Virus record (IMG/VR): IMGVR_UViG_3300020042_002824
Origin: a virus
Taxonomy: Duplodnaviria > Heunggongvirae > Uroviricota > Caudoviricetes
Reading direction: 5' to 3' (one strand)
Length of the DNA: 26,483 nt
In this document: positions 1 to 25,287 of the stretch, one piece after another
Position numbering within the stretch: position 1 is the stretch's first letter
How the letters are laid out: each line of letters starts with the position of its first letter
Notes under the pieces: generated by a model
The model's database searches: none
The model's input: only the letters and a program-made list of their open reading frames with translations
What the model was told of the DNA's origin: nothing
Program-made: the position numbers and the translations under genes

Positions 1-3000
1 GTTGGTACAGCATACCATGAAGTGTTTGAAGCTGTATGGAAGATGTTCTCTAGCCCTGAGGAAAGAGATAACATTGTAAGTGAATTCAAAGATAGAAGTG
101 GTAGTTTTGTAGATAGAATTACAGGACAAGATATTAAATATTCTAATGCCACTGCTTTTCAAATCAAAGAACAATTAGCTGAGGAATTCAGAGACTTTGT
201 ACAATATGGCAAAGTTCCAACTAAGCCAAGTAAAGGACAACCATTTATTGTTAAGTTGTTTAATGACTTAGTTAATTTTATTAAGTCATTCTTCTATGGT
301 CCTCAAGCTGCAAGAAACACAGAAGAGTTATTCAAGAGAATGACTAGTGGTTTCTATAAAGAATATTCTCCTTTAGATTCTAAATTATCATATGCTAAGA
401 ATGGCATTATAGATATTTCAGATGCTTATGGTGGAGCTAACAGTGAGTATCGTATTAAGGATCTACCTGGTCAAACTGTGCATGACATCATGCAACAAAT
501 GACCTATGTAACATTAGGTAAGTTTACAAAGAATAACAAGAGTCTTTTCTCTATTCCAAGCGTAAACAAAATAGAATTATATCAAGAGCTTAAAGAAGAC
601 TTACAAAAGACAGCCCTTAAAACAATGAAGGCTGCTGAAGATTTAATAGATCAAGGTGTAATCACTGAAGAGCAAGCAGCTCCTACTAAAGAGAAGTCTA
701 GAGCTTTATGGCAAAAGATTACAGACAACTGGGATGAGTTAGCTGAAAAACATAAAGAATACTTATCTGCTTATAATATTGAGTTTGATAATAACAATGA
801 AGCAGCTTACATAACTGATAAAGCTAAAGAAGATCCATATGGTGAAGCCACTCAAATAGATAATTTCAAGAGAGCAAACGCTGCTGTAAAGCTATTACTA
901 TCTACAATACCTATTGTAAGAGAAGGTGAAATTGTGCGTTCATCTATCAATGGTGCCACATTACTTCCTACTAGTCAGGTGTTTATGGCTATTATGAACC
1001 AAACACATGATTCTAATAGCCCTGATGAAATGATTGAGGGTCTTCGCAAACTGGCTGAGAATGATGAAAACTATCGCACTCTATATGAACGCATATCAAA
1101 GAGTTCATATAACATGGATACATTTGAGTTTACTGATTTGAAGAACAGACATGACCTTCAATTAGTTTCAGCTCTATGGAGAACTTTCAATAAGCAAAGT
1201 CCTATTGTAAAGAACTTATACATATTACCTAATGGAGAAGTACAAGTGGGTGATTCTAACTTTGCCACTGCTGCAAGACAACTTAATCAAGATTTCTTAA
1301 ATGCTATTGTTGTTTCTGTAAAGAAACAAAATGGATACTTCCAGTATAGCAGTTTACAAAAAGCTTACATGCCTGTTGTAGATGCTAATGGCAAAGCTGT
1401 TATTTCTAAGTTTGCTGTAGATACACTAGATGAACAACTTAACTTCTTAAAGAAGTTTGGTATTGTATTTAACAAAGCTGACCTATTAGAAATGTCAGGT
1501 GAGGATCAAGATGACTTCTCAGAATCAGTAAAGGGTATTAAGAAAAGTTTCACTGAATTAAATAAGATAGCTACCTTCTCTGGTAGTGTATTATCTATCA
1601 ATGGTAGATTATTAAAACTAGCTAATATCAAAGCTAAGATAGATAACCCTGAGTTTGATAGTGTATTCTATAATGTAAATGGAGACGCTACACAATCATT
1701 CATTGGTGTTAATGCTTTAAGTAAATTATCAGATATTCTTTCTAAAGCACAGAATATCAATGACTTACGTGATACTCCATATTCATATTTACTTACAGAT
1801 AACTTTGCTAAGAACTCAGTTATCCTAGGACAGATGTTCAATATTGCTGAAGGAGGTAATCGTATAAAGGGTACAGAAAAGTTAATGGAAGCTTCTTGGG
1901 CTGATGGTACATTAGACCAAGGTAATGGTAAAAAGAAACAATCTTCTAAGCTTACATATAAACAACGTTTAGTACAAGAGATTAATATGAACCTTGCTGG
2001 TTACTATTATAACCTTGTACCTGGTGATGCTTCTCTTGAGCACATGGTAAACATGGGCAACTTTATTTCTAAGGAATCAATCAGAGCAGGTTATAATCAA
2101 CCAGGTGGTGTACTAGATACATTCAGAGGATACTTATTCTCTGAGATTGAATTAGCTAGAGAGACTCGTCCATTTACAAGAAACACCAATGAGTTACGCT
2201 TCTTCAAGGATATCCTTGGTGAAGAGTTACATGATCAAGTGATGGGTGAAGATGGTGAAGTGCTTACACCACAAGAAGTGTACGAAGCATTCACTGACGA
2301 GAATACAAATGTAAACGCAATAGATGAAGCCATCACTAAGTATATTGTTGAAAAGACAGCAGCATTCAAAAGAAGTCTTAGCAACTATGGTATCATTACC
2401 AAAGGAGAAGAGAAAGAAACTTGGTTTGTTGAAAACTTAGCGTTTGCTCAATCTGGTACCACTACAACAGAAAACCTAAATAGAGAACTTGAAATGTTGC
2501 AAATCAATTTCATGATTAACAACATTGAGTTACATAAATTATTATACTCAGATCCATATCAATATAAGGATGAGCTTAAACGTATCAAGAGTTTCCTATC
2601 TCCACGTCAATCTATTATTTCTAATTCAGCAAGCATGAACGCTGCGTTGAATAACATTTGGAATGAAGGATTTGATGAGGGTGATATAGGACGTACAGAC
2701 TTCACTCAAGACTATTTCAGAACAGCAACATATGCTGATGTCTTAGCAGTGGGTGATATTCCTGGCTATGAAGAAGAAGCTTTTGAAGAAACAGATGGTA
2801 GTGGTATTATTACTATGAAGGGATATCGCAACTTTAGAATACGTGCAGGTGAGTGGAATGATAATGAAGAATTACAATACAAATTTGATATTGCTTATGA
2901 GAAGCTTGTTAAGTCTGGTGCAAATAAAGAAGAGATTGCTGAGTTTAATAAAAAGAACCCAAGTGTAAAGAGTGCATACACTCCTCTTAAACCTATTGTG

Positions 3001-6000
3001 TCTGGTAACAAAGCTAATGGCAGATCTTACAATGATATTGTATTAGATAAGTTTGCTCTTTATCCATTGAGCTTCAGGGTGTTACATCAACTTAATCCTG
3101 AATCAAACAGTATTAAGTTTTACAATAAAATGCAAGCTGAGAACATTGATTATACAGTGTTCAAATCTGGTAGAAAGGTGGGAGCTGAAGAGCTTAACGA
3201 ACCATACAATGAGAACGATCAATTCAACGAAGCTCCTTATGTAGGTATTGTTAATGTACCATTTGGTATCATGTCTATACAATCTGAGGTTCCATCTAAG
3301 GATGAGCCTGTTGTAACTAGAGGTAGTCAGGTTACTAAGTTAGTCACTCTTGACTACATGGAAGCTGGTGTACCTATTGACTTTGAGCCAGGTGATAACT
3401 TCAATCAGCGTCTTGATAAATGGAATGCTCTTAAGAATAAGTCTACCTATAATGATGGTAAAAACTTATACAATGAGATTAAGAATAACCAAGAGTTATT
3501 AGAAGCAATGATTGATAATGGTTATCAAAGCCTTCTTAAACAAATGGGAATCAAGGAGTTAAAGAATGGTAAGTTTAAGATTGCAGACTTCTCCAAAGCT
3601 GCTAACTTATTACGTAGAGAGATTCTTAAAAGAGAAGTTAATGATAATGTGGCTGATGCGTTGGCTGGTTTCTTAGAAGGCAAAGTTGTTATTGAAGCAA
3701 CTCCTGCTTACCAACAAATCAGAAACATCCTATATTCTATTGCAGATAGAGAGGTGATTACACCAAAGATATCTGGTGGTCAAAAGGTACAGATTCCTTC
3801 TACATTCTTAGAAGAGAATAGAATTAAGTCTAAGAATGGTAAAGGATATACATCTGATGTTCTTAAGTTTTATACAAATAAAGAGGGTGAGCGTGTAGCT
3901 GAGGTGATGGTAGGTAGATGGTTTGACAGCAATAAGACTGACGCAGAACTTCTTGACTATTTAAACAATACAGAAGAAGGACAGAAGATATTAAAAGGTG
4001 TGGCATATCGTATCCCTACACAGAAACAAAACTCTATTGATGCAATTGTGATTAAGCAATTCCTTCCTAGAGAGTTTGGTGACAGTGTTGTGATTCCTTC
4101 TGCCCTAGTTAAGAAAGCTGGTTCTGACTTTGACATTGATAAGTTATTTATATACTTAAAGAATACTTATAAGGATGGTCTTGGCAACATCAAACTAGTT
4201 CCTTACTATGGTATTGGTGATGCTGCTAAAGAAAAGTTTGAAGACTTGTATGCTGATATATCTGAAAACAAGATTAAGATTACACAAGAAAGCAAAGTAA
4301 AACTTGGCAACTTACAAAACTTATTAAGTGACATTGCTCTTGGCGAAGCTTCTAGCAAGACTGCTGAGAAATGGATTCCTATACTTCAGAATATGTTTGG
4401 AGATAGTTTATCTGTTATTGAGATTGAAGATGCGTTGATGACTAAGTTGGAAGAGACAGGTAAAAAACTTGAAGACTTATATGACCTTGATTTACAGGCA
4501 GTTCTAATGGAAAAGTTTGTAGAAAGAATGTACAAGAAGAGTCTTGAGAATGAGTATATCCAGTCAATGGAAAACTTAATTACAAGAGAAGAAAACTTTG
4601 CTTCATTAACTAAGCCTAACTCTGCAGACCAAATGAAAGGGTTGGCTAAGAAGATTACAAGAAAGCTTGGGTTTGAATCATTTAACTATGACACTCCAGG
4701 CAATATGTTGGATAGAAACTTTATGTCTAGATTAAGACAAGCGTTTGTATCTGGTAAGTATGCAATTGGTATTGCTGCTGTAAACCAAACAAACCACTCT
4801 CTTAACCAAAGACAACCTATATATGTTGACACAGACAAACTAGCTATGTTAGATAGTGCTGACAGAGCATGGATAGGCAATGGTAAAATTAACTTTAAGG
4901 ATTACAATAAGATAATGATAAACAACAAACCTGTTGCTACATTGTCTATGGTTAAGAATGCTAAAGGAGATTACATCTCAGATATCATTGGTCAGTTTAT
5001 TGATGGATACGTGGATATCTCTAAGGGTCCATGGATCATGGAACTAGGTGCCACTCCTAATACAGCTTCCACTTGGTTATTCTTAACTAAGCTTGGTGTG
5101 CCTATTGAGGATGTTTCCTACTTTATGAACCAACCAATCATACGTGATTACTTACGTAAGATTGAAAATTCTGGATACTCTTGGTTATTTATTGAAGACT
5201 TTGTTAAAGAAATGAAACAAAGTCCTAAGTATAAGGTGGCTGATAACTATAACTTTAGTAAGATTACAACTATACCTTCTGCATCTAAGTTATCTAGTAC
5301 AGTGGGTAATAACAACTTAAACCAAGATCAGAAAGCTGAACAACAGTTTATGTTGGATGAGTTCTTAAAATATGCTAGGATGGCTAATCAAATGTTCCTT
5401 GTTACTCAAGGATCTAACTTTGATACAGCTACATTCAATGATCCATTCTTAGTGTTCAAGAAACAACAACAGTTGCTCAAAGCACAGAATACAATCATCT
5501 CTTCTGTAGATGACATATTAGCAAACTCTTTCTTAGGTAAGTTGGCTGAAAGAATTGGCAACATCAGAAATGCTTATGCTGAGATTCTTACCTCTGATAA
5601 AAACAACACTAGACGTGTTCTTGAGAATGTGCTTCTACCATATACAGATATGTCAGATGATGAATTTGTTAATGTGTCTAGAAAGGCTGTAACTAATCTA
5701 TTTGATTGGGCTGTACAGGTGGACCAAAAGCTTAACCAAGAAATCAGTGGTATGTTATTAGGTGATGACAATGCTGCTGGTGAAATTACAGACTTTGTAA
5801 ATAAGGTTAAAGCAGATCCTAACCATAAGTTGTTTGACAACATTATAGTTAATCTGTTAGAAAACCTACCTTCTCCTACAGAGGATGGAGTTAATAACAT
5901 TAAGATTAAGAACAAGAATAATAAGACATATGATCAAAACCAAATGATATATGGCTTCAAAGAACTTAAGTCTTATCTTGGCAAAGACCCTCTATATGAT

Positions 6001-6753
6001 AAGTTAGTTAGACTTTCTGTATTACAATCTGGTATTGCTAACAGTCCTATATCATTTACCAACTTACTTCCTTACGAAGACTTTGCAAAAATATATAACA
6101 AAACTTTGTCCAAGTTAGACAAAATGCCTAACTTAGATCAATTTTATAAACTAGGTGTATTCCAAAGAAACAACTGGGCTGATGATGATGTTGTTCCTTA
6201 CAAGAAAGCTACGTTCAAACAGGACAATCAAGGTAACTGGTATTACAGCAATGGCATACAGTTCAAGAAGAATGAAGCATTAAATCTTGATATCCAAGCA
6301 GGTAAGACTCCTCAGTTAGTAAAGATACATCACATGGCACGTGAGTCTAAGAGTGACTACATTGTGTACACATGGGAAGAAGGAACTAAGTCAGAGAAGA
6401 TTAAGATGAGAAAAGATGGTGACTTCTCTTACATCAAGAAAGGATTGTTCAAGAAGGTATATAATGGTGATACACCATTTGCTATCAAGAACTTCTATGG
6501 TGCTGATACATTCATCTACAAGATGATCAATGCATGGGGAGATAGCTACAAAGCTAATGAGTTCTATGAAAATGCTAGAGAATCTGTAATTCCTAATGGC
6601 TTTATTCAAACCATTGAGAAAGAAGATGATGATATTAGAAAGTATTTTGAGGTGAAGAAAGATAATGCTCCTAAGGCTGTATCTAAAAAGGTTAAGAAAA
6701 TCAAAGCTCCTGGTCTTCCAGAGATAGAAAATAACAATGTAAACAACTGCTAA
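1..6753 (+). CDS. Virion RNA polymerase, crAss-like/phi14:2 gp66 type (two-barrel RNAP), with an N-terminal zincin-like domain; 5'-truncated
   Basis: The frame is open from base 1 (VGTAYHEVFEAVW...), so the track start at 22 is not the true start. RIPTQ...VIPSALVKKAGSDFDIDKLF carries the catalytic DxDxD as DFDID at 4126-4140, the variant known from crAss-like vRNAPs. Other conserved blocks: ETDGSG, TPLKPIV, DKFALYPL, GIAAVNQ, QFIDGYVDISK. Zincin-like HEVFE at 16-30 with a downstream EQLAEEF. Confidence 0.9.
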   Translation, partial: VGTAYHEVFEAVWKMFSSPEERDNIVSEFKDRSGSFVDRITGQDIKYSNATAFQIKEQLAEEFRDFVQYGKVPTKPSKGQPFIVKLFNDLVNFIKSFFYGPQAARNTEELFKRMTSGFYKEYSPLDSKLSYAKNGIIDISDAYGGANSEYRIKDLPGQTVHDIMQQMTYVTLGKFTKNNKSLFSIPSVNKIELYQELKEDLQKTALKTMKAAEDLIDQGVITEEQAAPTKEKSRALWQKITDNWDELAEKHKEYLSAYNIEFDNNNEAAYITDKAKEDPYGEATQIDNFKRANAAVKLLLSTIPIVREGEIVRSSINGATLLPTSQVFMAIMNQTHDSNSPDEMIEGLRKLAENDENYRTLYERISKSSYNMDTFEFTDLKNRHDLQLVSALWRTFNKQSPIVKNLYILPNGEVQVGDSNFATAARQLNQDFLNAIVVSVKKQNGYFQYSSLQKAYMPVVDANGKAVISKFAVDTLDEQLNFLKKFGIVFNKADLLEMSGEDQDDFSESVKGIKKSFTELNKIATFSGSVLSINGRLLKLANIKAKIDNPEFDSVFYNVNGDATQSFIGVNALSKLSDILSKAQNINDLRDTPYSYLLTDNFAKNSVILGQMFNIAEGGNRIKGTEKLMEASWADGTLDQGNGKKKQSSKLTYKQRLVQEINMNLAGYYYNLVPGDASLEHMVNMGNFISKESIRAGYNQPGGVLDTFRGYLFSEIELARETRPFTRNTNELRFFKDILGEELHDQVMGEDGEVLTPQEVYEAFTDENTNVNAIDEAITKYIVEKTAAFKRSLSNYGIITKGEEKETWFVENLAFAQSGTTTTENLNRELEMLQINFMINNIELHKLLYSDPYQYKDELKRIKSFLSPRQSIISNSASMNAALNNIWNEGFDEGDIGRTDFTQDYFRTATYADVLAVGDIPGYEEEAFEETDGSGIITMKGYRNFRIRAGEWNDNEELQYKFDIAYEKLVKSGANKEEIAEFNKKNPSVKSAYTPLKPIVSGNKANGRSYNDIVLDKFALYPLSFRVLHQLNPESNSIKFYNKMQAENIDYTVFKSGRKVGAEELNEPYNENDQFNEAPYVGIVNVPFGIMSIQSEVPSKDEPVVTRGSQVTKLVTLDYMEAGVPIDFEPGDNFNQRLDKWNALKNKSTYNDGKNLYNEIKNNQELLEAMIDNGYQSLLKQMGIKELKNGKFKIADFSKAANLLRREILKREVNDNVADALAGFLEGKVVIEATPAYQQIRNILYSIADREVITPKISGGQKVQIPSTFLEENRIKSKNGKGYTSDVLKFYTNKEGERVAEVMVGRWFDSNKTDAELLDYLNNTEEGQKILKGVAYRIPTQKQNSIDAIVIKQFLPREFGDSVVIPSALVKKAGSDFDIDKLFIYLKNTYKDGLGNIKLVPYYGIGDAAKEKFEDLYADISENKIKITQESKVKLGNLQNLLSDIALGEASSKTAEKWIPILQNMFGDSLSVIEIEDALMTKLEETGKKLEDLYDLDLQAVLMEKFVERMYKKSLENEYIQSMENLITREENFASLTKPNSADQMKGLAKKITRKLGFESFNYDTPGNMLDRNFMSRLRQAFVSGKYAIGIAAVNQTNHSLNQRQPIYVDTDKLAMLDSADRAWIGNGKINFKDYNKIMINNKPVATLSMVKNAKGDYISDIIGQFIDGYVDISKGPWIMELGATPNTASTWLFLTKLGVPIEDVSYFMNQPIIRDYLRKIENSGYSWLFIEDFVKEMKQSPKYKVADNYNFSKITTIPSASKLSSTVGNNNLNQDQKAEQQFMLDEFLKYARMANQMFLVTQGSNFDTATFNDPFLVFKKQQQLLKAQNTIISSVDDILANSFLGKLAERIGNIRNAYAEILTSDKNNTRRVLENVLLPYTDMSDDEFVNVSRKAVTNLFDWAVQVDQKLNQEISGMLLGDDNAAGEITDFVNKVKADPNHKLFDNIIVNLLENLPSPTEDGVNNIKIKNKNNKTYDQNQMIYGFKELKSYLGKDPLYDKLVRLSVLQSGIANSPISFTNLLPYEDFAKIYNKTLSKLDKMPNLDQFYKLGVFQRNNWADDDVVPYKKATFKQDNQGNWYYSNGIQFKKNEALNLDIQAGKTPQLVKIHHMARESKSDYIVYTWEEGTKSEKIKMRKDGDFSYIKKGLFKKVYNGDTPFAIKNFYGADTFIYKMINAWGDSYKANEFYENARESVIPNGFIQTIEKEDDDIRKYFEVKKDNAPKAVSKKVKKIKAPGLPEIENNNVNNC

Positions 6754-11967: not shown

Positions 11968-12008
11968 TTGCGTATCATTTACTTACACATTTTTATTATT
12001 AATATATT

Positions 12009-12311
12009 ATGGATGTATCTTGCTCAGCAGAACCATGTCCAGTCATACTAAATGCCACCTGTGTCTTTTATGAAGGTGAGAATTTAATATACACTGGCAT
12101 CAATACTAATGATAGTCTTCAAACTGCTCTACAAAAAATAGACGCTAAGTTTGGAGATGTTGGTCTTGGGTATATATTCCAAAATGGAATTATACAGTCA
12201 GCTCCTGGTCAACCAGAAGCAAAGAGTTTTAGAGTGCAGTATGCAGATCTAGACACTACAGCGTTTGCAGATCTTGCTGCTGCTGTTTTAGCCTCTGCTG
12301 AAGAAGCATAA
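12009..12311 (+). CDS. Short Cys-containing protein resembling a tail-fibre N-terminus; possibly chimeric or truncated
   Basis: 100 aa. N-terminus SCSAEPCPVILNATCVFYEG...NDSLQTALQKID, with an abrupt compositional change after APGQP to an Ala-rich helix. Confidence 0.5.
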   Translation: MDVSCSAEPCPVILNATCVFYEGENLIYTGINTNDSLQTALQKIDAKFGDVGLGYIFQNGIIQSAPGQPEAKSFRVQYADLDTTAFADLAAAVLASAEEA

Positions 12312-12331
12312 GCTAAAATAATGAAAATTAA

Positions 12332-12363
12332 TTTGGTTTTCTCGTAGAGATGACATATATTTG
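12332..12363 (+). promoter_or_regulatory. Bacteroidota housekeeping-sigma promoter for the glycosylation/sulfation cluster
   Basis: TTTG at 12332-12335, 20-nt spacer, TATATTTG(CA) at 12356-12363; the ATG follows at 12381. Confidence 0.75.
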
Positions 12364-12380
12364 CAGGCAAAACCAACGTT

Positions 12381-13256
12381 ATGAATATTATTTTCCAGAT
12401 CAATGGGGGTATTGGCAAGTGTATCCTTGCTACATCCATGTGTGAGGTGATACATCACCAATATCCTGAAGATCAACTGATTGTTGTTAGTGGCTACCCT
12501 GAGGTGTTCTTGAACAATCCATATGTTCACAGATCATTTGCTTTTGGTCAAGCTGCCTACTTCTACCAGGATTATATAGAGAACAAGGAGTTTGCTGTGT
12601 TTGCACACGATCCTTATGTGGATACACATTACATTAGACAGGATGAACATCTTAGCTATACATGGACCAGGATCTTTGGTTTACCTGCTCCTGAGAATGT
12701 AAATCCACAAATCTATTTAACAGACAGAGAGCGTCAGTTCTTTGGTAGTAAGTTTACCTCTGATAAGCCTATATTCCTAATGCAAACCAACGGGGGTGCT
12801 GCAGGACAGGAGTTAAAATACTCATGGGCTAGAGACATTCCAGCTAACACAGTGTTGAATGTTATAGAGGAATTCAGAAATGATTACAACATTGTTCACA
12901 TTAGAAGGGAAGATCAAACAGCTTTCCCTGGAACAATCCCTGTAACAGACAACTTTAGAGCTTTAGCTGTATTGATAGAACTAAGTGAGAAGAGATTGTT
13001 TATGGACAGCTTTGCACAACATGCAGCAGCTGGATTAGATAAACCTTCTACAGTGCTATGGATAGCTAACAGCCCTGTGGTGTTTGGTTATGATATACAC
13101 AGTAATATCCTATCTAACCCACATACAAAGAAACCAGAACTACGTAATGCATATTTCCAGAAGTTTGATATTGCAGGAAACCTATTAGAGTTTCCTTATA
13201 ATATGGAACATGAAATATTCAACGTTGATAACATAATCGCTTCTCTAAAAGCATAA
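12381..13256 (+). CDS. GT-B glycosyltransferase, GT9 (heptosyltransferase)-like
   Basis: N-terminal GGIGK (cf. GGIGD)...YPE...PEVFLNNPYV; C-terminal FMDSFAQHAAAGLDKPSTVLW matches the GT9 pattern DSGxxHxAAAxxxPTVxLF. Confidence 0.75.
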   Translation: MNIIFQINGGIGKCILATSMCEVIHHQYPEDQLIVVSGYPEVFLNNPYVHRSFAFGQAAYFYQDYIENKEFAVFAHDPYVDTHYIRQDEHLSYTWTRIFGLPAPENVNPQIYLTDRERQFFGSKFTSDKPIFLMQTNGGAAGQELKYSWARDIPANTVLNVIEEFRNDYNIVHIRREDQTAFPGTIPVTDNFRALAVLIELSEKRLFMDSFAQHAAAGLDKPSTVLWIANSPVVFGYDIHSNILSNPHTKKPELRNAYFQKFDIAGNLLEFPYNMEHEIFNVDNIIASLKA

Positions 13257-13262
13257 CTACAT

Positions 13263-14084
13263 ATGGATAAAATATTCTATCAAAGCTCTCTACCTAGAGC
13301 TGGAAGTACATTATTGCAAAACATCTTGGCTCAAAACCCTGATGTGTATGCAACCCCTACAAGTGGTGTTCTTGAATTAATATTTGCAGCAAGAGCTAAC
13401 TATACCAACTCTCCTGAGTTTAAAGCACAGGATCCTAAATTAATGGAAGATGGTTATAAAGCTTTCTGTAAAGCTGGTATGGATGCTTTCTACAACGCTA
13501 TTACAGACAAGAAATATGTTATAGATAAAAGCAGAGGATGGGGGATTCATTATGACTTCCTACAGTTTGTACAAGGAGAAGAACCAAAGATTATCTGCAT
13601 GGTGAGAGACCCACGTGATATCTTTGCTTCTATGGAAGGTAATTTTAGAAAGCACCCAGAGAAACAATCTGATATATTAGATTGGTCTAAAGGACAAGGA
13701 ACAACAGTTCCTAAACGTATTGACATCTGGTCACAGAATCCTCCTGTAGGACTGGCTTTTGAAAGACTCTCTGAGATATTCAGAATGGGATTAGATAGCA
13801 AGATGTTGTTTGTAAGGTTTGAAGACTTGTGTCTTTATCCTGATACAGAGATGATTAGGATATATGAATACCTTGGCATTCCTCATTACAAACATGACTT
13901 TGATAACATAGAACAATTAACTAAAGAAGATGATGCGGTGTATGGTGCTTTTGGTGACCACGTGATTAGAACCAAGCTTGAACCTGTTCCTTCTAAAGCT
14001 AAGCAGCTATTAGGCAAGGATGTTACAGATTGGATTTACACTAATTACAAATGGTTCTTTGATACCTTTAGATACAGTAAGTAA
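13263..14084 (+). CDS. PAPS-dependent sulfotransferase
   Basis: 5'-PSB loop SLPRAGSTLL, 3'-PB motif RDPRDIFAS, and VRFEDL. Confidence 0.9.
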   Translation: MDKIFYQSSLPRAGSTLLQNILAQNPDVYATPTSGVLELIFAARANYTNSPEFKAQDPKLMEDGYKAFCKAGMDAFYNAITDKKYVIDKSRGWGIHYDFLQFVQGEEPKIICMVRDPRDIFASMEGNFRKHPEKQSDILDWSKGQGTTVPKRIDIWSQNPPVGLAFERLSEIFRMGLDSKMLFVRFEDLCLYPDTEMIRIYEYLGIPHYKHDFDNIEQLTKEDDAVYGAFGDHVIRTKLEPVPSKAKQLLGKDVTDWIYTNYKWFFDTFRYSK

Positions 14085-14884
14085 TGAAGACAAAGTTTCA
14101 AATAGGTTTATATCAACTTGATAAAAAGGATTTTAGAAATGCTTTTCATGTAAACAAGTTAATATATGCTTTGTTTCCTAAAGATAATGCTGTTACAAGC
14201 TCTATTATAAATGGATGGCAGTATGAGAAGTATATGTTTGATTTCCTTGAACAGAATCAAATAGATTGTGAAGGAAAAGATATTCTTGACGTAGGAGCTA
14301 ACAATGGTAACTTTGCTGTAGACTTTTCTCATTTAGTTGGTGACCACGGTAGAGTGTTTAGTTTTGAGCCACAACGTATCATATACTATCAATTGTGTGC
14401 TAATGTATTCCTTAATGGACTAGACAATGTATATTGTCAAAATGTGGCAATTGGAAATGGTGTTGATAAAGAAGTTGTTATACAGATTCCTGATTATCAC
14501 AGTAAAGAAGAAGTTAACTTTGGAGATGTAAGAGTTAGTAACTATGGAGGAGATATAGTTGAGCAAAGAGCTTTAGACAGTTACACCTTTACTAGTATTG
14601 CATTTATTAAAATAGATGTACAAGGATACGAATTATTTGTGATTGATGGTGCTAAAGAAACTATTAAGAAACATAGACCTTATATGTTCATAGAGTTTGA
14701 AGATCACCTACTGAAAGAACAAGGAACATCAGAGGCAGAACTAAAATCTAAGATAGAATCATTAGGATATGTGGTAAAGCAGTTTCAAGAAGGCATTCCT
14801 TATCAAACAGAGAGTGGCAAATGTCTTGATTGTGTATGTATACCAGAGGAAAAATTTAAAGAATTTAATCATATAATACCATGA
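14084..14884 (+). CDS. FkbM-family SAM-dependent methyltransferase
   Basis: LDVGANNG...GRVFSFEP...FIKIDVQGYELFVIDGAKETIKKHRP..FIE. Confidence 0.9.
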   Translation: MKTKFQIGLYQLDKKDFRNAFHVNKLIYALFPKDNAVTSSIINGWQYEKYMFDFLEQNQIDCEGKDILDVGANNGNFAVDFSHLVGDHGRVFSFEPQRIIYYQLCANVFLNGLDNVYCQNVAIGNGVDKEVVIQIPDYHSKEEVNFGDVRVSNYGGDIVEQRALDSYTFTSIAFIKIDVQGYELFVIDGAKETIKKHRPYMFIEFEDHLLKEQGTSEAELKSKIESLGYVVKQFQEGIPYQTESGKCLDCVCIPEEKFKEFNHIIP

Positions 14885-15333
14885 TAGTAGTACTATTTGG
14901 GCAGCCTCACTCAGGCAAAACTACATTAGCTCAAGAGCTAGAATTTGAAGAACTATATGACTATCATATAGATGGTGACCATCTCAGAACTATGTTTAAG
15001 AACACAAACTATAGTAAAGAAGGTAGAATAAGCAACCTTAATAGAGCTAGTGACATTGCTACATATTTACATTACAATGGTAATGATGTTGTATTGTCTT
15101 TAGTATATCCTTACAAAGAAGCTAGAGACTATTTAAATAGCCTGGTTCCAGATGTTAAGTGGGTATATCTACATTATACTGGAGAAAGAGGTAGAGAAGA
15201 ATTCCATGTTAAAGACTTTGAATTCCAATACCTAGAAGAAAAAGTGTTACAACTAAATACATCAGATCTATCAATTGAAGACTGTATTACTAAAATTCAA
15301 AACTACATTGATGAAGATTCTAGCAAAGGGTAA
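14881..15333 (+). CDS. cysC: Adenylyl-sulfate (APS) kinase-like P-loop kinase, shortened lid region
   Basis: P-loop GQPHSGKTT, then IDGDHLR, YSKEGRISNL.RA and VVLSLVYPY..AR follow the CysC pattern. Only 150 aa. Confidence 0.75.
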   Translation: MIVVLFGQPHSGKTTLAQELEFEELYDYHIDGDHLRTMFKNTNYSKEGRISNLNRASDIATYLHYNGNDVVLSLVYPYKEARDYLNSLVPDVKWVYLHYTGERGREEFHVKDFEFQYLEEKVLQLNTSDLSIEDCITKIQNYIDEDSSKG

Positions 15334-15694
15334 TGGTAATGGAAGTGGTTGGGCTATGTTCATAGGAAGATGGCAACCATGGCATCCTGGTCATAGATGG
15401 TTAATTGATCAGAAATTAAATGAAGGTAAGAATGTACTTCTCTGTGTAAGAGATGTTAAAGAGGATGAAAAGAACCCTTGGTCTGCATGGCAAGTGATGA
15501 TGAATTTGACAGAAGAATTGATGGACTTAATTGAAGAAGGAAGAGTGAGACTTATGATTATCCCTGATATTGAATCTATCAATATTGGTAGGGGTATTGG
15601 TTACGATGTTATAGAACATACACCTCCCCAAGATATACATGACATCTCAGCAACTAAGATTAGAGAACAATTGAAAGCTGAAGGCAAGCTCTAA
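15311..15694 (+). CDS. HxGH-superfamily nucleotidyltransferase (cytidyltransferase/NMNAT-like)
   Basis: FIGRWQPWHPGH motif and C-terminal ISATKIR (KMSKS-equivalent). The likely start is the ATG at 15311, a 23-nt overlap with the upstream gene, rather than 15275. Confidence 0.8.
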   Translation: MKILAKGNGNGSGWAMFIGRWQPWHPGHRWLIDQKLNEGKNVLLCVRDVKEDEKNPWSAWQVMMNLTEELMDLIEEGRVRLMIIPDIESINIGRGIGYDVIEHTPPQDIHDISATKIREQLKAEGKL

Positions 15695-15900
15695 TGGTAG
15701 GAACTAAAAGACACATAGCAAAAACTATAAGTTACAGACTCATAAGTACAGGAATTGGATTCCTTCTTATGTGGATAGCAACAGGCAGTATCAAGATAGG
15801 TGCTGCATTCAGTGTTGCTGAACTGGCATACAAGCCTTTCGTATATTTTATCCATGAACGTGTTTGGTACAAATGGATTAAGTACGGCATAAAGAAATAA
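15694..15900 (+). CDS. DUF2061-like small membrane protein
   Basis: RHIAKTISYRLIST...two hydrophobic helices...YFIHERVW; coupled by TAATG. Confidence 0.8.
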   Translation: MVGTKRHIAKTISYRLISTGIGFLLMWIATGSIKIGAAFSVAELAYKPFVYFIHERVWYKWIKYGIKK

Positions 15901-15920
15901 ACCCTCTATTTTTTAATTAC

Positions 15921-15956
15921 ATAGCGTGACTCCCCAATTAGGGAAGGGCATGCTAT
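15921..15956. other. Intergenic stem-loop between the sulfation cluster and the lysis cassette
   Basis: ATAGCGTG/CATGCTAT outer stem (one G-U) plus an inner TCCC/GGGA stem. Confidence 0.45.
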
Positions 15957-15964
15957 TGTCATTT

Positions 15965-16261
15965 ATGAAACAAATGAAACAACAAATTGAAGCCTTCAAA
16001 GTTTGGATTTTCCCTAGCCTAGTGTCAATACTAGCTATGATGATTTGGAATGATGTTAATGAAATCAAATCAGATGTTAAAGCCTTAATGGCTCAGTCTA
16101 ATGTAGACAAAACACGTATAGACAACCTAGAAAGGAATGTCTTTAAAACACAAGCAAGTGCCCCAATTGCACCTATGGAGGAACCTCCTATCACTGTCAG
16201 GATTGCTGATAACAGAGAGTTTGCTTATGTTAAATTAAAAAAGAAATCATATGAGCCTTAG
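15965..16261 (+). CDS. Single-TM coiled-coil protein (holin- or spanin-like)
   Basis: Hydrophobic WIFPSLVSILAMMIW followed by a heptad-like region. The likely start is the ATG at 15965 or 15974, not 15926. Confidence 0.5.
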   Translation: MKQMKQQIEAFKVWIFPSLVSILAMMIWNDVNEIKSDVKALMAQSNVDKTRIDNLERNVFKTQASAPIAPMEEPPITVRIADNREFAYVKLKKKSYEP

Positions 16262-16475
16262 AAGTATTATAAAAGACATGCTTACAGATGAGCGTGGATC
16301 TACTAGCCATAAGAGAGCAATTGTTACACTGAGTGCTGTATGCTTACTCAGTGCATTCATGTTTAACTTCAATGTTAACACACACATGGCAGACCTAGTA
16401 GCTGGTATCATATTCGTAGGAATGGGATTCACTACATGGGATAAATTTTCAACTAAAAAGAAAGACAATGAATAA
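16251..16475 (+). CDS. Putative holin (2 TM, basic C-terminus)
   Basis: 74 aa with two hydrophobic segments and a KKKDNE tail; lies upstream of the endolysin. Confidence 0.55.
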   Translation: MSLRSIIKDMLTDERGSTSHKRAIVTLSAVCLLSAFMFNFNVNTHMADLVAGIIFVGMGFTTWDKFSTKKKDNE

Positions 16476-17085
16476 GAACATATTATCATTAGCTGTGATT
16501 GTGCTTATTGCAATCATAGTGTTACAAAGAACTGGTTGTGGACCTGATAAAGCTGCTAAGGGACCTGACACAGTGGTGGTACATGACACTACATATGAAG
16601 TGCGTGATAGTCTCATCGTAAAGAGAATGACTGTTTACAAAACACTTCCTCCTGTACATGATACACTTCCTCCTCAGTATATAGCTGATACAAATTATGC
16701 TGCTTTGAAGCTGCAATATGAGAAACTATTAGGAATGTTCCTAGCTAGAAATGTTTACGTGGACAGCTTAAAGCTAGACTCTGTAGGATATGTAGTGGTG
16801 AGTGATACAGTGCATTCTAACAAACTAGATAATCGTGGATATCAATATCATTATAAGATACCTACAATTCATACAACAACTACTATCACTAAGTATGCCC
16901 CTCTGAAGAATCAATTGTATGCAGGTGGTGGTATAGGTGGTAATAAGACACTGGGTGTAACAAACCTAAATGCTGGTGTGCTTCTTAAGACTAAGAGTGA
17001 TCAGATTTACAGTGTTACAGTTGGTACAAACACTGATGGTCAAATAAGTTATGGCTTTCAGACATTTTGGAAACTTAAAAAATAA
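16468..17085 (+). CDS. Membrane-anchored periplasmic protein, possibly spanin-like
   Basis: N-terminal hydrophobic helix followed by a Cys, seven D-(S/T)-(V/T/L) motifs and a beta-rich C-terminus; located in the lysis cassette. Confidence 0.45.
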   Translation: MNKNILSLAVIVLIAIIVLQRTGCGPDKAAKGPDTVVVHDTTYEVRDSLIVKRMTVYKTLPPVHDTLPPQYIADTNYAALKLQYEKLLGMFLARNVYVDSLKLDSVGYVVVSDTVHSNKLDNRGYQYHYKIPTIHTTTTITKYAPLKNQLYAGGGIGGNKTLGVTNLNAGVLLKTKSDQIYSVTVGTNTDGQISYGFQTFWKLKK

Positions 17086-17088
17086 AAC

Positions 17089-17250
17089 ATGAAGAAGATT
17101 TTAGACTTACTTAAAAAGTTATTTGGTAAGAAAGAACTAGCTGGTACAGCTGTAGAAGTTAAGCAAGAGGAACCAATCCTAGTTGTTGAACCAAAGCCTG
17201 TAGCTGCTAAGAAAAAACCTAAAAAGAAGAAGAAGAATGACGTTAAATAA
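17089..17250 (+). CDS. Small Lys-rich protein (53 aa; absent from the ORF track)
   Basis: MKKILDLLKKLFGKKELAGTAVEVKQEEPILVVEPKPVAAKKKPKKKKKNDVK fills the gap between genes and overlaps the endolysin start. Confidence 0.7.
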   Translation: MKKILDLLKKLFGKKELAGTAVEVKQEEPILVVEPKPVAAKKKPKKKKKNDVK

Positions 17251-17854
17251 TTTGAAGGGGCATGTCCCTGATAGCATATTAGATAAGATACCTGAGGTGA
17301 TGGAGAAGTTTCAGATAAACACCCCAGTGCGCCTTGCTCATTTCCTAGCACAAACAGGACATGAGAGTGGTGGATTTAGAGCATTCCAAGAAAACCTTAA
17401 CTATGGTGCTAAAGGATTAACAAACACATTTAAAAAGTATTTTAAGCGTGCTGATGGAACAATTGATGAACCTAAAGCACTAGCCTATGCTAAGAAGCCT
17501 GAGAAGATTGCAAATCTTGTATATGGTGGACGTATGGGTAATGGTCCTGAAGCATCAGGAGATGGTTATAAGTTTCGTGGAAGAGGAGCAATACAACTGA
17601 CTGGTAAAGATAACTACACAGCATTCTTTAAATCAATAGGACTAGGACCTGATGCAGATCCTAATCTAGTTGGTACACAGTATGCGCTGTTATCTGCAGC
17701 TTGGTTCTGGAGCAAGAATGGATTAAATAAAATAGCAGATGAAGGAGCTACAGATGCTGTAGTGACTAAGATTACCAAGCGTGTAAATGGTGGTACTATT
17801 GGTCTTGCAGATCGCATCAAACACTTCAAAGAATATCATTCATCATTAGTTTAA
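17237..17854 (+). CDS. Glycoside hydrolase family 19 endolysin
   Basis: LAHFLAQTGHESGGF..FQENLNY; FRGRGAIQLTGKDNY; SAAWFW; ITKRVNGG.IGLADR. Confidence 0.93.
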   Translation: MTLNNLKGHVPDSILDKIPEVMEKFQINTPVRLAHFLAQTGHESGGFRAFQENLNYGAKGLTNTFKKYFKRADGTIDEPKALAYAKKPEKIANLVYGGRMGNGPEASGDGYKFRGRGAIQLTGKDNYTAFFKSIGLGPDADPNLVGTQYALLSAAWFWSKNGLNKIADEGATDAVVTKITKRVNGGTIGLADRIKHFKEYHSSLV

Positions 17855-21965: not shown

Positions 21966-22681
21966 AGAAGTTACTACTTGTCCTTGTAACATTTTTATAT
22001 ATAAATTTGTTACAAGCTCAACTAGCCAAAACCTCTACAGAGCAATACAAGGCTAGCTTTGAGAAGGCTATAGATATTTCGAGCTTTCTAGATTATGATG
22101 GACCTCAAATCCCTATTCAGATCTTGAAGTGTGGCATCAATGATGAGATGTATGAGCTATATCCTGAGCTAAAAGAAAAGCGTGTGGGCCTAGGGGTGGC
22201 TAACATATCTATGGAATACTTGGAGAACCTAAACAGATTCAAATTTACAGAAGACAAAACAGAGATTAAGAACAGAATGGTGAAGCAGTTTCAGGCTTCC
22301 CAAGCTGGCATATCTGAGAATAAGTTAGATGGACGTGGTAAGATTAATCTAGCTAAATACTTTGTAACTATTGAATGTTATGATTATAGTATATCAGAAG
22401 ATGAAACTATTAGCCTTAAGGATGGTACAAAACAACTTATGGTTACGAGGATTGGTTTACAAGTTAGATTCACAGATGCTGAAACTGGTGTGGTGTTCTC
22501 AGGCTCTGGGCTTGGTGATGCAAAGACAACTAAAGAGACTGCTGGGATAACTTCAGACGCTGCTTTAGATCCTGTTAAGTTTAATCAATCCACTATATCT
22601 ATAGCAACTAAGAAGGCCCTGGACATAGCTTGTGCTAGGATCTTGGACAGGATGGTGAAGAAAGGAATCTTCACTAAGTAA
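21962..22681 (+). CDS. CsgG/HfaB-family-like exported protein
   Basis: Signal peptide. LGVANISMEYLENLNRF...A.YFVT...YDYS...IGLQVRFTDAETG.V...G.G and a terminal helix IATKKALD follow the CsgG-family layout. Confidence 0.7.
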   Translation: MKKLLLVLVTFLYINLLQAQLAKTSTEQYKASFEKAIDISSFLDYDGPQIPIQILKCGINDEMYELYPELKEKRVGLGVANISMEYLENLNRFKFTEDKTEIKNRMVKQFQASQAGISENKLDGRGKINLAKYFVTIECYDYSISEDETISLKDGTKQLMVTRIGLQVRFTDAETGVVFSGSGLGDAKTTKETAGITSDAALDPVKFNQSTISIATKKALDIACARILDRMVKKGIFTK

Positions 22682-23907
22682 TGAAGCAGTTTATTTTTAT
22701 TCTATTAGTGGTAGTCTTACTACCAATATTTGGGTATTCTCAAACTATCATACAGACGTTTACAGATCCTTGTACAAAGGTGACAACTACATTCACTATA
22801 CCTATTACAGGTAGTACAACGTTGGTATTTTACAACAAATCTAAAACATTCACATCAGCTGATGTACAATCTGGTGCTCTCCAAGCATGGTTGAATCAGG
22901 TGTATGAAGAATATAGAAAACTCAGTCCTTGCTCTGTAGCACAAGCAACACAAACTTCCACACAGATAACAGCTGCTGCTGTGAGCTCAGCTGTTGGGAG
23001 TGCTGTTAGTTCAGCTGCCAGTTCTGCTGTAGGGGCTGCTACATCTTCAGCTGCCAGTAGTGCAGCAAGTGGTGCTAGTTCTGCCGCAGCAAGTTCAGCT
23101 AGTTCTTCTAGTAGTTCTTCTAGCAACAGTTCAGAATCAAGTAGCAGTTCTGAAAGCTCATCTAGCTCAGAAAGTAGTTCTGAATCCAAATCTGAAAGCA
23201 AGGGGGGAGGGGGTAAGGGAGGTGGTAAATCTGGTGGAAAGAGCCAAGCTAAGATGAACCCCATACTCTTCAACTCTGATCTTACAGGAGGACAAACATT
23301 AGATGGTTCTGTCAACCTTGTGGTTACATCAGGTATATCTCAAAGCTCTATGGCAGGAGATGCTAGCTGGGGAGTTACAGGAATGGTCTGGAGCAACCTT
23401 AAACAGTTTGCTATAAGTGGACGCTATACCAAGATGAACTTTGATGGTGGTAAACTACAGAACATATCTAACTATGGTGGCACTGTAGCTTATGCTTTTG
23501 GTAATGTGTTTGGGTTTGTAACATATGCCAAAATCTTTCCTCTAGGAAAGTGGGGAGTTACAGGTGTCAACGCTACAATAAGTGTAGCTTCTGCAGACTA
23601 CAAAGATGATGAGAAACAATACACAACTACACACTCTTTATTATTCTTCTATACAAAACCATTCACCATCAATAGAAAAATAACACTATCTCCTGATATA
23701 TACATCTCTGGTAGCCCTGTTACATATGGCACCAAAGATGGTCAGTTCATAGTGAGTGATGACATGATGTTCCTAACAGGATGCAGCATGGACTACTCAA
23801 TTACAAAGAGATTCAAGTTTAACACAGGACTAAGAACTAGCCTTAGCACCAATCCAGAGATGCCCATCTTGGTCTTTGCTGTGATAGGAAGCAAGTTAAA
23901 TTTATAA
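22681..23907 (+). CDS. Exported protein: small N-terminal domain, Ser/Ala-rich linker, probable outer-membrane beta-barrel
   Basis: Signal peptide; S/A/E/G low-complexity tract at about 22966-23244; amphipathic beta-strands ending FAVIGSKLNL. Confidence 0.6.
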   Translation: MKQFIFILLVVVLLPIFGYSQTIIQTFTDPCTKVTTTFTIPITGSTTLVFYNKSKTFTSADVQSGALQAWLNQVYEEYRKLSPCSVAQATQTSTQITAAAVSSAVGSAVSSAASSAVGAATSSAASSAASGASSAAASSASSSSSSSSNSSESSSSSESSSSSESSSESKSESKGGGGKGGGKSGGKSQAKMNPILFNSDLTGGQTLDGSVNLVVTSGISQSSMAGDASWGVTGMVWSNLKQFAISGRYTKMNFDGGKLQNISNYGGTVAYAFGNVFGFVTYAKIFPLGKWGVTGVNATISVASADYKDDEKQYTTTHSLLFFYTKPFTINRKITLSPDIYISGSPVTYGTKDGQFIVSDDMMFLTGCSMDYSITKRFKFNTGLRTSLSTNPEMPILVFAVIGSKLNL

Positions 23908-24828: not shown

Positions 24829-25287
24829 ATGAGTTTAATTGCTTACATAAGATATGATAATAAGGGAAGGATTGTTCCAGGTGGACCAATAGTAACTTCA
24901 GTTAAGCCAAAGGTGGGTGACTGGGTTGCTATTAGTGACGTTCTTGTTACAACCACCCCTCCCAATTATAAACTACGTGCATTCGTTAGATATATAAATA
25001 GAATAGGTAGTCAAAATAACAGCAACAAATATGTAGCTGGAAGTCTAATCCTTCAACATGATGCTCCTCAGGATGGTAATTGGAAAGAGGTTTATTTCAT
25101 AAAGCCTTGTGATTCTTGTACAACAACAACCACTACATCTACTACTACTAGTACAACAACCTCTACAACTAGTAGTACATCTACCACAACTACCACTACA
25201 ACTATAGCTCCTACTGGTGATTTTATATTAGCAGAGAATAGTGACCCTATCATAACAGAGGATGGTGATAATTTAATAATAGAATAA
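24829..25287 (+). CDS. Probable virion decoration protein: tandem small domain, 28-residue Thr/Ser linker, acidic C-terminal motif
   Basis: LIAYIRY..GRIVPGGPI...PKVGDWVAI recurs as LRAFVRY...KYVAGSLI...PQDGNWKEV. Codons 25120-25203 are all Thr/Ser. Ends FILAENSDPIITEDGDNLIIE. Confidence 0.65.
   Translation: MSLIAYIRYDNKGRIVPGGPIVTSVKPKVGDWVAISDVLVTTTPPNYKLRAFVRYINRIGSQNNSNKYVAGSLILQHDAPQDGNWKEVYFIKPCDSCTTTTTTSTTTSTTTSTTSSTSTTTTTTTIAPTGDFILAENSDPIITEDGDNLIIE

Follow-up and report, generated by a model that had tools for sequence, protein, structure and literature searches.

We analysed a 26,483-nucleotide stretch of DNA from a tailed phage (IMG/VR record IMGVR_UViG_3300020042_002824), referred to below as the window, with a focus on a cassette of six genes at positions 12332-15900. 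A first-pass annotation, made from the sequence alone, had proposed that this cassette is an operon which builds, methylates and sulfates a glycan and also supplies its own sulfate donor, 3'-phosphoadenosine 5'-phosphosulfate (PAPS). The six open reading frames (ORFs) are tightly packed on one strand, with a 6-nt gap at the first junction and overlaps of 1, 4, 23 and 1 nt at the following ones (Table 1). They encode a glycosyltransferase-like protein (GT), a sulfotransferase (ST), a methyltransferase dependent on S-adenosylmethionine (SAM) (MT), a kinase resembling adenosine 5'-phosphosulfate (APS) kinase (KIN), a small nucleotidyltransferase (NT) and a small membrane protein of the DUF2061 family. 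The Pfam families, the GT9 fold and the HxGH motifs behind these names were all recovered, and the enzyme set stands as originally named.

Table 1. Positions, strand and supporting evidence of the features of the window
Feature	Position	Strand	Evidence
crAss-like virion RNA polymerase homologue (context)	1..6753	+	tblastn to 89 crAss-like phage records
100-aa stub ORF (context)	12009..12311	+	Resembles the N-terminus of a relative's large collagen-repeat fibre protein
Bacteroidota-type promoter-like motif (putative)	12332..12363	+	Pattern match: TTTG, 20 nt, TATATTTG
GT, divergent glycosyltransferase-like protein of GT9 fold (GT-B), 291 aa	12381..13256	+	Fold search; phrog_8954 3e-8
ST, PAPS-type sulfotransferase, 273 aa	13263..14084	+	Sulfotransfer_3, Sulfotransfer_1
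MT, FkbM-family SAM-dependent methyltransferase, 266 aa, accessory	14084..14884	+	PF05050, TIGR01444
KIN, APS-kinase-like P-loop kinase, 150 aa, about 20 lid residues deleted	14881..15333	+	PF01583
NT, small HxGH nucleotidyltransferase, 127 aa, candidate sulfate adenylyltransferase	15311..15694	+	GRWQPWHPGH, ISATKIR
DUF2061 small membrane protein, 68 aa	15694..15900	+	PF09834
Small membrane-protein genes and GH19 endolysin (context, probable lysis module)	15926..17854	+	ORFs, phrog/Pfam, terminator scan

ST matched the Pfam families Sulfotransfer_3 (PF13469; 6.7e-17, 62.9 bits against a cut-off of 27) and Sulfotransfer_1 (PF00685; 1.6e-13, 51.1 bits against a cut-off of 22), and its best NCBIfam match was a partial one to the Nod-factor sulfotransferase NoeE (8.6e-11). 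A 5'-phosphosulfate-binding motif, LPRAGST, and a 3'-phosphate-binding motif, RDPRDxxxS, were found in the protein; in the forms LP(R/K)xG(S/T) and RDxRDxxxS they were invariant in eight ST sequences, down to 18% identity. Identity to annotated sulfotransferases of cyanophages is about 30%. The retention of both PAPS-binding motifs, even in comparison with the 18%-identical homologue, supports the predicted sulfotransferase function. MT matched PF05050 (1.4e-21, 77.9 bits; cut-off 22.7) and TIGR01444 (3.9e-27, 95.5 bits; cut-off 37.7). Using ST as the query, we found 32 viral loci, and MT was present in only about 10 of them; it is an accessory gene outside the core set.

In these 32 loci, GT lay directly beside ST wherever the flank was present, and KIN, NT and DUF2061 accompanied them in about 28, mostly in the same order. 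In four contigs the order was KIN-NT-GT-ST, and DUF2061 lay at a distance of about 4.5 kb. The association was also found in an unrelated myovirus with sheath and terminase genes, which carries a GT9-like gene, ST, FkbM, ST, a KIN-NT fusion, DUF2061 and GT1 in this order, and a polysaccharide locus contains ST, a KIN-NT fusion and GmhA followed by GT1 genes. The first-pass annotation had staked its operon on co-occurrence across genomes, and the genes do co-occur, both in about 28 of the 32 ST loci and in the unrelated myovirus. Among 79 viral loci collected with KIN-NT, DUF2061 was recognised in 39, a GT9-like gene in 21 and the present ST clade in 19; all of these counts are lower bounds owing to narrow hidden Markov models (HMMs), and because the ST HMM was built from one clade, 19 of 79 should not be read as a rate.

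KIN matched the APS_kinase family (PF01583; 6.1e-12, 46.2 bits; cut-off 21.1), and its best sequence matches in the PDB were exclusively APS kinases (2yvu, 1.2e-9; 8a8h; 3cr7; 1d6j). In the alignment with CysC, the P-loop (GQPHSGKT), the DGDxxR motif (IDGDHLR), the aromatic residue and Arg of FSxxDR (YSKEGR) and the N..R motif (SNLNR) could all be identified. The coding sequence of NT overlaps that of KIN; alternative starts exist at 15275 and 15356, and the overlapping ATG at 15311 is the one kept in relatives. NT gave a match to Pfam CTP_transf_like slightly below the cut-off (5e-4). Its motifs GRWQPWHPGH and ISATKIR, which were invariant in 16 NT sequences, are of the type found in nicotinamide mononucleotide (NMN) adenylyltransferases (NMNATs), namely GRxQPxHxGH and ISxTxxR. 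A profile of the 16 sequences matched NMNATs (1.7e-9) over the first approximately 75 NT residues only, and the matches were limited to NMNAT residues 7-85 of 181, with a TIGR01527 score of 29.4 bits against a cut-off of 181. A fold search with the NT model (predicted local distance difference test, pLDDT, 77.9) returned NMNAT and then phosphopantetheine adenylyltransferase (PPAT); a single sulfurylase-like chain appeared at rank 49 (E 0.12), and no sulfurylase was found among the sequence matches.

Because NT ends right after ISATKIR, the part of NMNAT that holds NMN is absent. NT is thus compatible with an NMNAT-like core without an acceptor subdomain, which would fit a very small acceptor. 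A loop of the form GR(G/D)xGY is invariant among NT sequences, and we speculate that it is a candidate anion site. NT has no homology to known ATP sulfurylases, and its role as a sulfate adenylyltransferase is putative; in position, NT takes the place of ATP sulfurylase beside, or fused to, the APS kinase and beside the sulfotransferase. The alternative that NT is an ADP-heptose adenylyltransferase was rejected, as relatives with a heptose insert (see below) have an HldC-like gene in addition to NT.

Querying for longer proteins with NT revealed more than 50 protein clusters of KIN-NT fusions, 250-280 aa in length, with PF01583 ahead of the NT domain. When these fusions were used as the query, at least 588 viral stretches were found. 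Where KIN and NT are separate, their 23-nt overlap is kept in dozens of relatives and is therefore no sequencing error; for the same reason, we rejected the possibility that KIN and NT are one frameshifted gene. The fusions and the conserved overlap indicate that KIN and NT are functionally linked. Co-folding of the two proteins of the window gave a score of 0.34, compared with 0.02 for the best control, and the runs shared at least 97% of contacts with a partner pLDDT of at least 87. Among 80 solved complexes, 58 reached this mark, as did 2 among 110 mismatched pairs; at a score of 0.60 or less it was reached by only 7 of the 80 solved complexes but by both mismatches; the co-folding result thus hints weakly at a KIN-NT interaction.

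The DUF2061 protein matched PF09834 over the full length of the model (4.3e-15, 56.3 bits; cut-off 23.1). Bacterial homologues with 54-61% identity are fused to textbook CysC proteins (P0096 and P0097), followed by cysD, cysN and cysQ. A scan with one genome per species yielded 80 DUF2061 loci, mostly from Flavobacteriales and otherwise from other Bacteroidota, in which cysC was directly downstream in 73 and cysD, cysN and cysQ were present in 66, 62 and 62, respectively. In these genomes DUF2061 is either duplicated in tandem (about 142 aa) or part of a CysC fusion of 278-345 aa, and in about 70 of the 80 loci it heads a conserved cysC-cysD-cysN(-cysQ) operon. We regard DUF2061 as the most telling link between the trio KIN, NT and DUF2061 and sulfate activation, and by gene content the phage trio appears to mirror the DUF2061-CysC-CysDN set of the likely host, with NT in the place of ATP sulfurylase. 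In a gammaproteobacterial metagenome-assembled genome (MAG), KIN-DUF2061-NT is convergent with a gene for a 784-aa TPR-sulfotransferase (L065:5591-9144). KIN is the sole APS-kinase match in this MAG, and no match to Sat, to CysD or to the PAPS_reduct family was found in its 2.6 Mb, which may be incomplete. A DUF2061-KIN-NT locus on a 375-kb Bacteroidota contig (L075) was dropped as bacterial evidence, as its small ORFs resemble those of a prophage. An Atlas look-up with DUF2061 returned DUF2061 clusters only, mostly viral.

The family of GT was recognised by fold search only, and a profile of 15 homologues found no match among PDB sequences. The AlphaFold model (pLDDT 71.6) gave GT9 enzymes as the top Foldseek matches (3tov, 9e-9; 1psw; 4rb4; 2h1h), with WaaF, TibC and WaaC among them; all 33 matches at E ≤ 1e-3 were GT9 enzymes, except for three chains of plant NDH-PSI complexes. 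In an alignment with four Bacteroidota GT9 proteins, the donor-site motif DSxxxH was kept (D209, S210 and H214 are invariant in phage and bacterial sequences), but LGD of the bacterial proteins reads IGK in the phage protein, where GGIGK replaces the GD motif. The Asp of this motif is the catalytic base in WaaC. Because DSxxxH is shared and a Lys stands for the GD-motif Asp, we take GT, on the basis of its model, to be a divergent GT9-fold enzyme, perhaps with an acceptor of a different kind than is usual for GT9.

Five relatives carry an insert between KIN and NT that encodes a cupin, a HAD phosphatase and three homologues of the ADP-heptose pathway, namely heptose-7-phosphate kinase (HldA, 3e-40), heptose-1-phosphate adenylyltransferase (HldC, 4e-26) and ADP-heptose 6-epimerase (HldD, 3e-49), and GmhA adjoins a KIN-NT fusion in another locus (L042). 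These genes make an ADP-heptose-type sugar our best guess for the donor of GT. The ADP-heptose genes are not in this window. No phage-borne heptose kinase was found in the five related records searched, a blank that shows little, and three near-complete relatives likewise gave no PfkB kinase. In the clades whose DUF2061 is closest, genomes encode two to five GT9 proteins, and four of five also encode an HldE-like kinase; the host could therefore supply the ADP-heptose donor to phages without the insert, including this one.

Other gene content varies among the relatives. GT25 enzymes or a second sulfotransferase are added in a variable slot in some of them. In one locus, a GNAT acetyltransferase and a protein of the fatty-acid-hydroxylase family lie between ST and MT (L016:6701-7952), which hints at lipid or further sugar tailoring, and in some relatives a 1158-aa methyltransferase-GT4-GT9 protein directly precedes KIN-NT-GT-ST (L007:857-4333). 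KIN-NT fusions also occur in cultured Xylella, Xanthomonas and Stenotrophomonas phages, where they are annotated as 'kinase', 'adenylylsulfate kinase' or hypothetical; those of Xylella phage Salvo (gp32, L033) and Stenotrophomonas phage DLP_6 (AAY80_227, L034) lie in early/DNA-metabolism regions. These isolates would be convenient for work on the enzyme. A marine phage contig (L039:3461-16786) carries KIN-NT and DUF2061 together with SAM synthetase, SufE, NifU, Fe-S assembly proteins, IMPDH and NAD synthase, and looks like a sulfur/cofactor auxiliary-gene island.

The pattern TTTG-N20-TATATTTG upstream of the GT gene matches the Bacteroidota -33/-7 promoter consensus and ends 17 nt ahead of the GT start codon. 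This two-box motif is kept upstream of GT in about 12 related viral contigs; across the whole window it occurs 4 times against 1.5 expected, which is not significant alone. We consider it a putative promoter. Downstream, the terminator scan found no terminator-like site after DUF2061, where the next genes begin 25 nt on, or anywhere between DUF2061 and the GH19 endolysin (17237-17854; phrog_181 6.9e-71, Glyco_hydro_19). The interval between the two (15926-17085) contains three co-directional ORFs of 111, 74 and 205 aa, which have hydrophobic segments; they matched no family and are likely holin- or spanin-type lysis genes. The transcription unit thus probably extends past DUF2061 into the three small membrane-protein genes and the endolysin. 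Of the earlier proposal that one promoter drives six genes, the conserved motif and the six packed ORFs remain, but MT is optional and the unit probably does not end with the sixth gene.

The ORF at 1-6753 had tblastn matches that include gp66 of Cellulophaga phage phi14:2, annotated as 'catalytic RNA polymerase subunit', and because of this resemblance to the virion RNA polymerase we assign the window, from sequence, to an uncultured crAss-like phage (Crassvirales). Every long ORF of the window is on the plus strand, and the GC content is about 35%; related IMG/VR contigs are about 104-118 kb long. A Pfam search with the two giant ORFs of the window gave no family, and a DNA comparison of positions 12000-16500 with 50,697 phage records gave no match. 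Nearly identical copies of the cassette itself (12332-15900) were present in at least 15 DNA runs, which belong to at least 10 studies and are mainly freshwater metagenomes. Short pieces with 99-100% identity to the cassette, one across the KIN/NT overlap and one across the GT/ST junction, were present in three metatranscriptome libraries from separate studies; these contigs cover parts of the cassette only, the uncovered parts are uninformative and the covered parts may reflect DNA carry-over.

In this phage, the cassette lies between tail-fibre and lysis genes, and in relatives it is directly preceded by large fibre or spike genes with Peptidase_S74 chaperone domains or collagen repeats. The position among virion genes claimed in the first-pass annotation is thereby supported. 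The first approximately 70 residues of the ORF at 12009-12311 share 71% identity with the N-terminal end of a 1338-aa collagen-repeat protein (L015:815-4831), and this ORF resembles a fibre-gene remnant, either a stub or a docking module. Two proteins elsewhere in the window are candidate O-glycosylation substrates: an exported protein with a long Ser/Ala-rich tract (22681-23907) and a 152-aa protein with a run of about 28 Thr/Ser residues (24829-25287).

Taken together, the cassette is probably a phage-borne glycan-tailoring module with its own activated-sulfate supply, located where a freshwater crAss-like phage has its tail-fibre and lysis genes. In the proposed scheme, NT would adenylate sulfate (ATP + sulfate -> APS), and KIN, judging from its homology and conserved motifs, would phosphorylate the 3'-OH of APS to give PAPS. 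DUF2061 would be a membrane-bound partner of the kinase, a part that it apparently also plays for CysC in Bacteroidota. The GT9-fold enzyme would transfer a heptose-type sugar from an ADP-sugar, which may be host-derived in this phage and phage-encoded in some relatives; ST would then O-sulfate the glycan and the FkbM methyltransferase, where present, would O-methylate it. As for the acceptor, a phage fibre or other virion protein is our first, though tentative, choice, because of the cassette position behind fibre genes, the soluble transferases, the fibril clusters of giant viruses and the TibC fold match. A host envelope glycolipid or glycan, favoured by the GT9/GT25/ADP-heptose flavour of lipopolysaccharide (LPS) core synthesis and by the membrane protein, ranks a close second, and an acceptor of some other kind seems the least likely of the three.

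Several points weigh against this scheme. The likely hosts already encode cysDN and cysC, so that a second PAPS supply is not strictly needed. KIN scored 43.1 bits with TIGR00455, far from the equivalog cut-off of 138.7, with the match confined to residues 2-96, and in comparison with five CysC proteins the lid segment (..CExRDxKGLYxKAR..), about 20 residues, is deleted in all phage KIN sequences. The closest characterised relatives of NT, in both sequence and fold, are archaeal/NadM NMN adenylyltransferases; no specific likeness of NT to Sat, CysD, CysN or PF01747 was found, its families being of the NMNAT/cytidylyltransferase type only. GT matched no Pfam family at E ≤ 0.1, including PF01075 (Glyco_transf_9), and K13, in place of the GD-motif Asp, is invariant in 15 phage homologues. 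One relative has GT-ST-MT yet no KIN on a 111-kb record, and many KIN-NT loci are without a recognisable sulfotransferase (Salvo, DLP_6, L037, L039, L041 and the L134 clade). The evidence for expression consists of the short metatranscriptome pieces, whose libraries may contain DNA. The PAPS supply put forward in the first-pass annotation therefore holds insofar as the trio is tied to sulfate activation by the fusions and by the DUF2061-cysC-cysDN-cysQ operon, but it has to reckon with an NT that is NMNAT-like and has no specific likeness to ATP sulfurylase. A glycan-building role for GT is suggested by the GT9 fold and DSxxxH, but the Lys that replaces the conserved Asp weighs against an active heptosyltransferase.

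The strongest alternative, to which we give somewhat less than an even chance, is that the cassette remodels the host envelope late in infection, acting on the LPS or lipooligosaccharide core or on another lipid-linked glycan, either to block superinfection or to keep progeny from sticking to debris. The combination of GT9, GT25 and ADP-heptose genes is the one classically used to build the LPS core, the set includes a membrane protein, and Bacteroidota of the likely host clades have GT9 and HldE-like genes; the strong variation in gene content among relatives is also like that of receptor-related loci. However, the cassette is placed directly behind tail-fibre genes and ahead of the lysis genes, all of the transferases are predicted from their sequences to be soluble, and GT is without the catalytic Asp of LPS heptosyltransferases. 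To our knowledge, the phages that seroconvert LPS are temperate. Moreover, in the published cases of such viral clusters, the glycans are placed on virion fibrils (PMC10117803).

A different and rather improbable possibility is that NT and KIN make no PAPS. NT would then be an adenylyl- or cytidylyltransferase for NMN or another phosphoester and KIN a kinase with a different small substrate, the pair acting in NAD salvage or in a nucleotide-activated decoration, for example with glycerol-phosphate, and ST would use host PAPS, for which the likely hosts encode their own pathway. The NMNAT and PPAT matches of NT, the lid-less KIN below the equivalog cut-offs and the KIN-NT genes in the early/DNA-metabolism regions of Xylella and Stenotrophomonas phages are in line with this possibility. 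However, the NMNAT match covers only the N-terminal part of NT and the NMN-binding C-terminal part is missing, whereas KIN resembles only APS kinases and keeps DGDxxR and the aromatic/Arg pair. In addition, DUF2061 is tied to cysC and not to NAD genes, and a separate HldC-like adenylyltransferase accompanies the ADP-heptose inserts. The occurrence of KIN-NT where no sulfotransferase is recognisable means that it may supply activated sulfate for several purposes, or act otherwise. Least probable of all is that KIN-NT-DUF2061 is a general sulfur-assimilation module that raises APS/PAPS levels for the synthesis of cysteine, Fe-S and SAM in the host, with the glycan set as an unrelated neighbour. 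The marine contig L039 would suit it: KIN-NT adjoins SAM synthetase there, SufE, NifU, Fe-S assembly genes and DUF2061 are no more than 8 kb away, and the record shows no sulfotransferase. The other KIN-NT loci without a recognisable sulfotransferase and the assimilatory cysC-cysDN operon to which bacterial DUF2061 belongs would suit it as well. However, in this lineage the trio is embedded among the ST and glycan genes and moves with them despite changed gene order, its adjacency to such genes recurs in the myovirus, the polysaccharide locus and the bacterial MAG, and the window has no cysH or sulfite reductase. The cassette, being without reductive sulfur genes, is thus in agreement with the earlier view that it does not serve sulfur-assimilation metabolism.

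Returning to the glycan-tailoring module with its own sulfate supply, a bolder form can be stated, which we regard as doubtful as a whole: NT would be a new minimal class of ATP sulfurylase that makes up a mini PAPS synthase with the lid-less KIN and DUF2061. This synthase would occur widely in phages (at least 588 viral stretches) and also in some bacteria, and would feed ST for a sulfated heptose-type glycan on virion fibres. If true, this would be the first sulfated phage particle. NT in particular is a very small enzyme that may adenylylate sulfate independently of Sat and CysDN; if it does, sulfur metabolism in viruses and streamlined bacteria would have to be annotated differently, and a compact PAPS-regeneration part would be at hand for biocatalysis. 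For DUF2061, a testable context emerges, that of a CysC partner in sulfate activation. Bacteria seldom carry sulfated glycans. The presence of a conserved cassette beside receptor-binding genes in abundant freshwater phages implies that charge-modified glycans count for adsorption, virion protection or host-surface masking.

Dedicated bacterial sulfation cassettes are known in rhizobia (NodP/NodQ with NodH, and NoeE/NoeI in Rhizobium sp. NGR234) and in Xanthomonas (RaxP/RaxQ with RaxST). As is proposed for the phage cassette, they combine a sulfotransferase with an ATP sulfurylase and an APS kinase of its own, and the joint action of NoeE and a sugar O-methyltransferase on one sugar parallels the pairing of ST with the FkbM methyltransferase. 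However, these cassettes are non-viral, use CysDN/CysC-type enzymes, have known acceptors (Nod factor and the RaxX peptide) and contain no DUF2061 or NMNAT-like enzyme. The two steps of PAPS synthesis are often combined in one chain, as in human PAPSS1/2 and the SAT/APS kinase (SAT, sulfate adenylyltransferase) of Aquifex aeolicus (PDB 2gks), and the kinase is N-terminal and the second enzyme C-terminal in PAPSS. The phage KIN-NT fusions, too, have an N-terminal kinase and a C-terminal nucleotidyltransferase, and KIN matches the kinase domains of such bifunctional enzymes. In contrast, the second phage domain has no detectable homology to ATP sulfurylase, and the fusions have about 260 aa instead of 550-630 aa.

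GT shares the GT-B/GT9 fold with WaaC and WaaF and with the protein-heptosylating BAHT enzymes TibC and Aah, and the C-terminal DSxxxH with Bacteroidota GT9 proteins; the ADP-heptose pathway genes in related phage cassettes also fit GT9 heptosyltransferases. It differs from WaaC, WaaF, TibC and Aah in being shorter (291 aa), in giving no PF01075 match and in its Lys in place of the GD-motif Asp, and no counterpart of the iron-finger region of TibC is evident. The virions of mycobacteriophages are glycosylated by phage-encoded cytoplasmic glycosyltransferases, as proposed here if a virion protein is the acceptor, but their glycosyltransferase families and hosts differ from those of this cassette, and we know of no sulfation or PAPS supply described for them.

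The nearest published viral analogue is the glycosylation cluster for the fibrils of Megavirinae, with the SAT/APS kinase Ma457 and the sulfotransferase Ma461 in Moumouvirus australiensis and ORF724/725 in Cotonvirus (PMC10117803). In common with the phage cassette, it is a glycan cluster on a virus genome that combines glycosyltransferases, sugar-nucleotide genes, methyltransferases and a sulfotransferase with a dedicated PAPS-making enzyme, and in both cases sulfation is predicted rather than demonstrated (PMC10117803). The Megavirinae enzyme is a canonical SAT/APS kinase, bifunctional and about 620-655 aa long, whereas the cassette has a 150-aa lid-less kinase, a 127-aa NMNAT-like enzyme and DUF2061, and belongs to a tailed phage with a bacterial host and probably GT9/heptose-type sugar chemistry. 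A literature search on DUF2061, on crAss-like phages with sulfotransferase and on phage sulfotransferase or PAPS found no such cassette, and apart from the predicted giant-virus case we found no report of sulfated glycans on phage particles. The first-pass annotation knew of no established sulfated phage particle; its novelty has to be narrowed, as the giant-virus clusters with SAT/APS kinase and sulfotransferase are a viral precedent (PMC10117803). Already known, then, are the dedicated bacterial sulfation cassettes, the predicted SAT/APS kinase and sulfotransferase of Megavirinae (PMC10117803) and the annotated cyanophage sulfotransferases. What is new is the phage setting beside fibre genes, the probable heptose-type chemistry and a putative sulfate supply by a lid-less kinase, an NMNAT-like enzyme and DUF2061.

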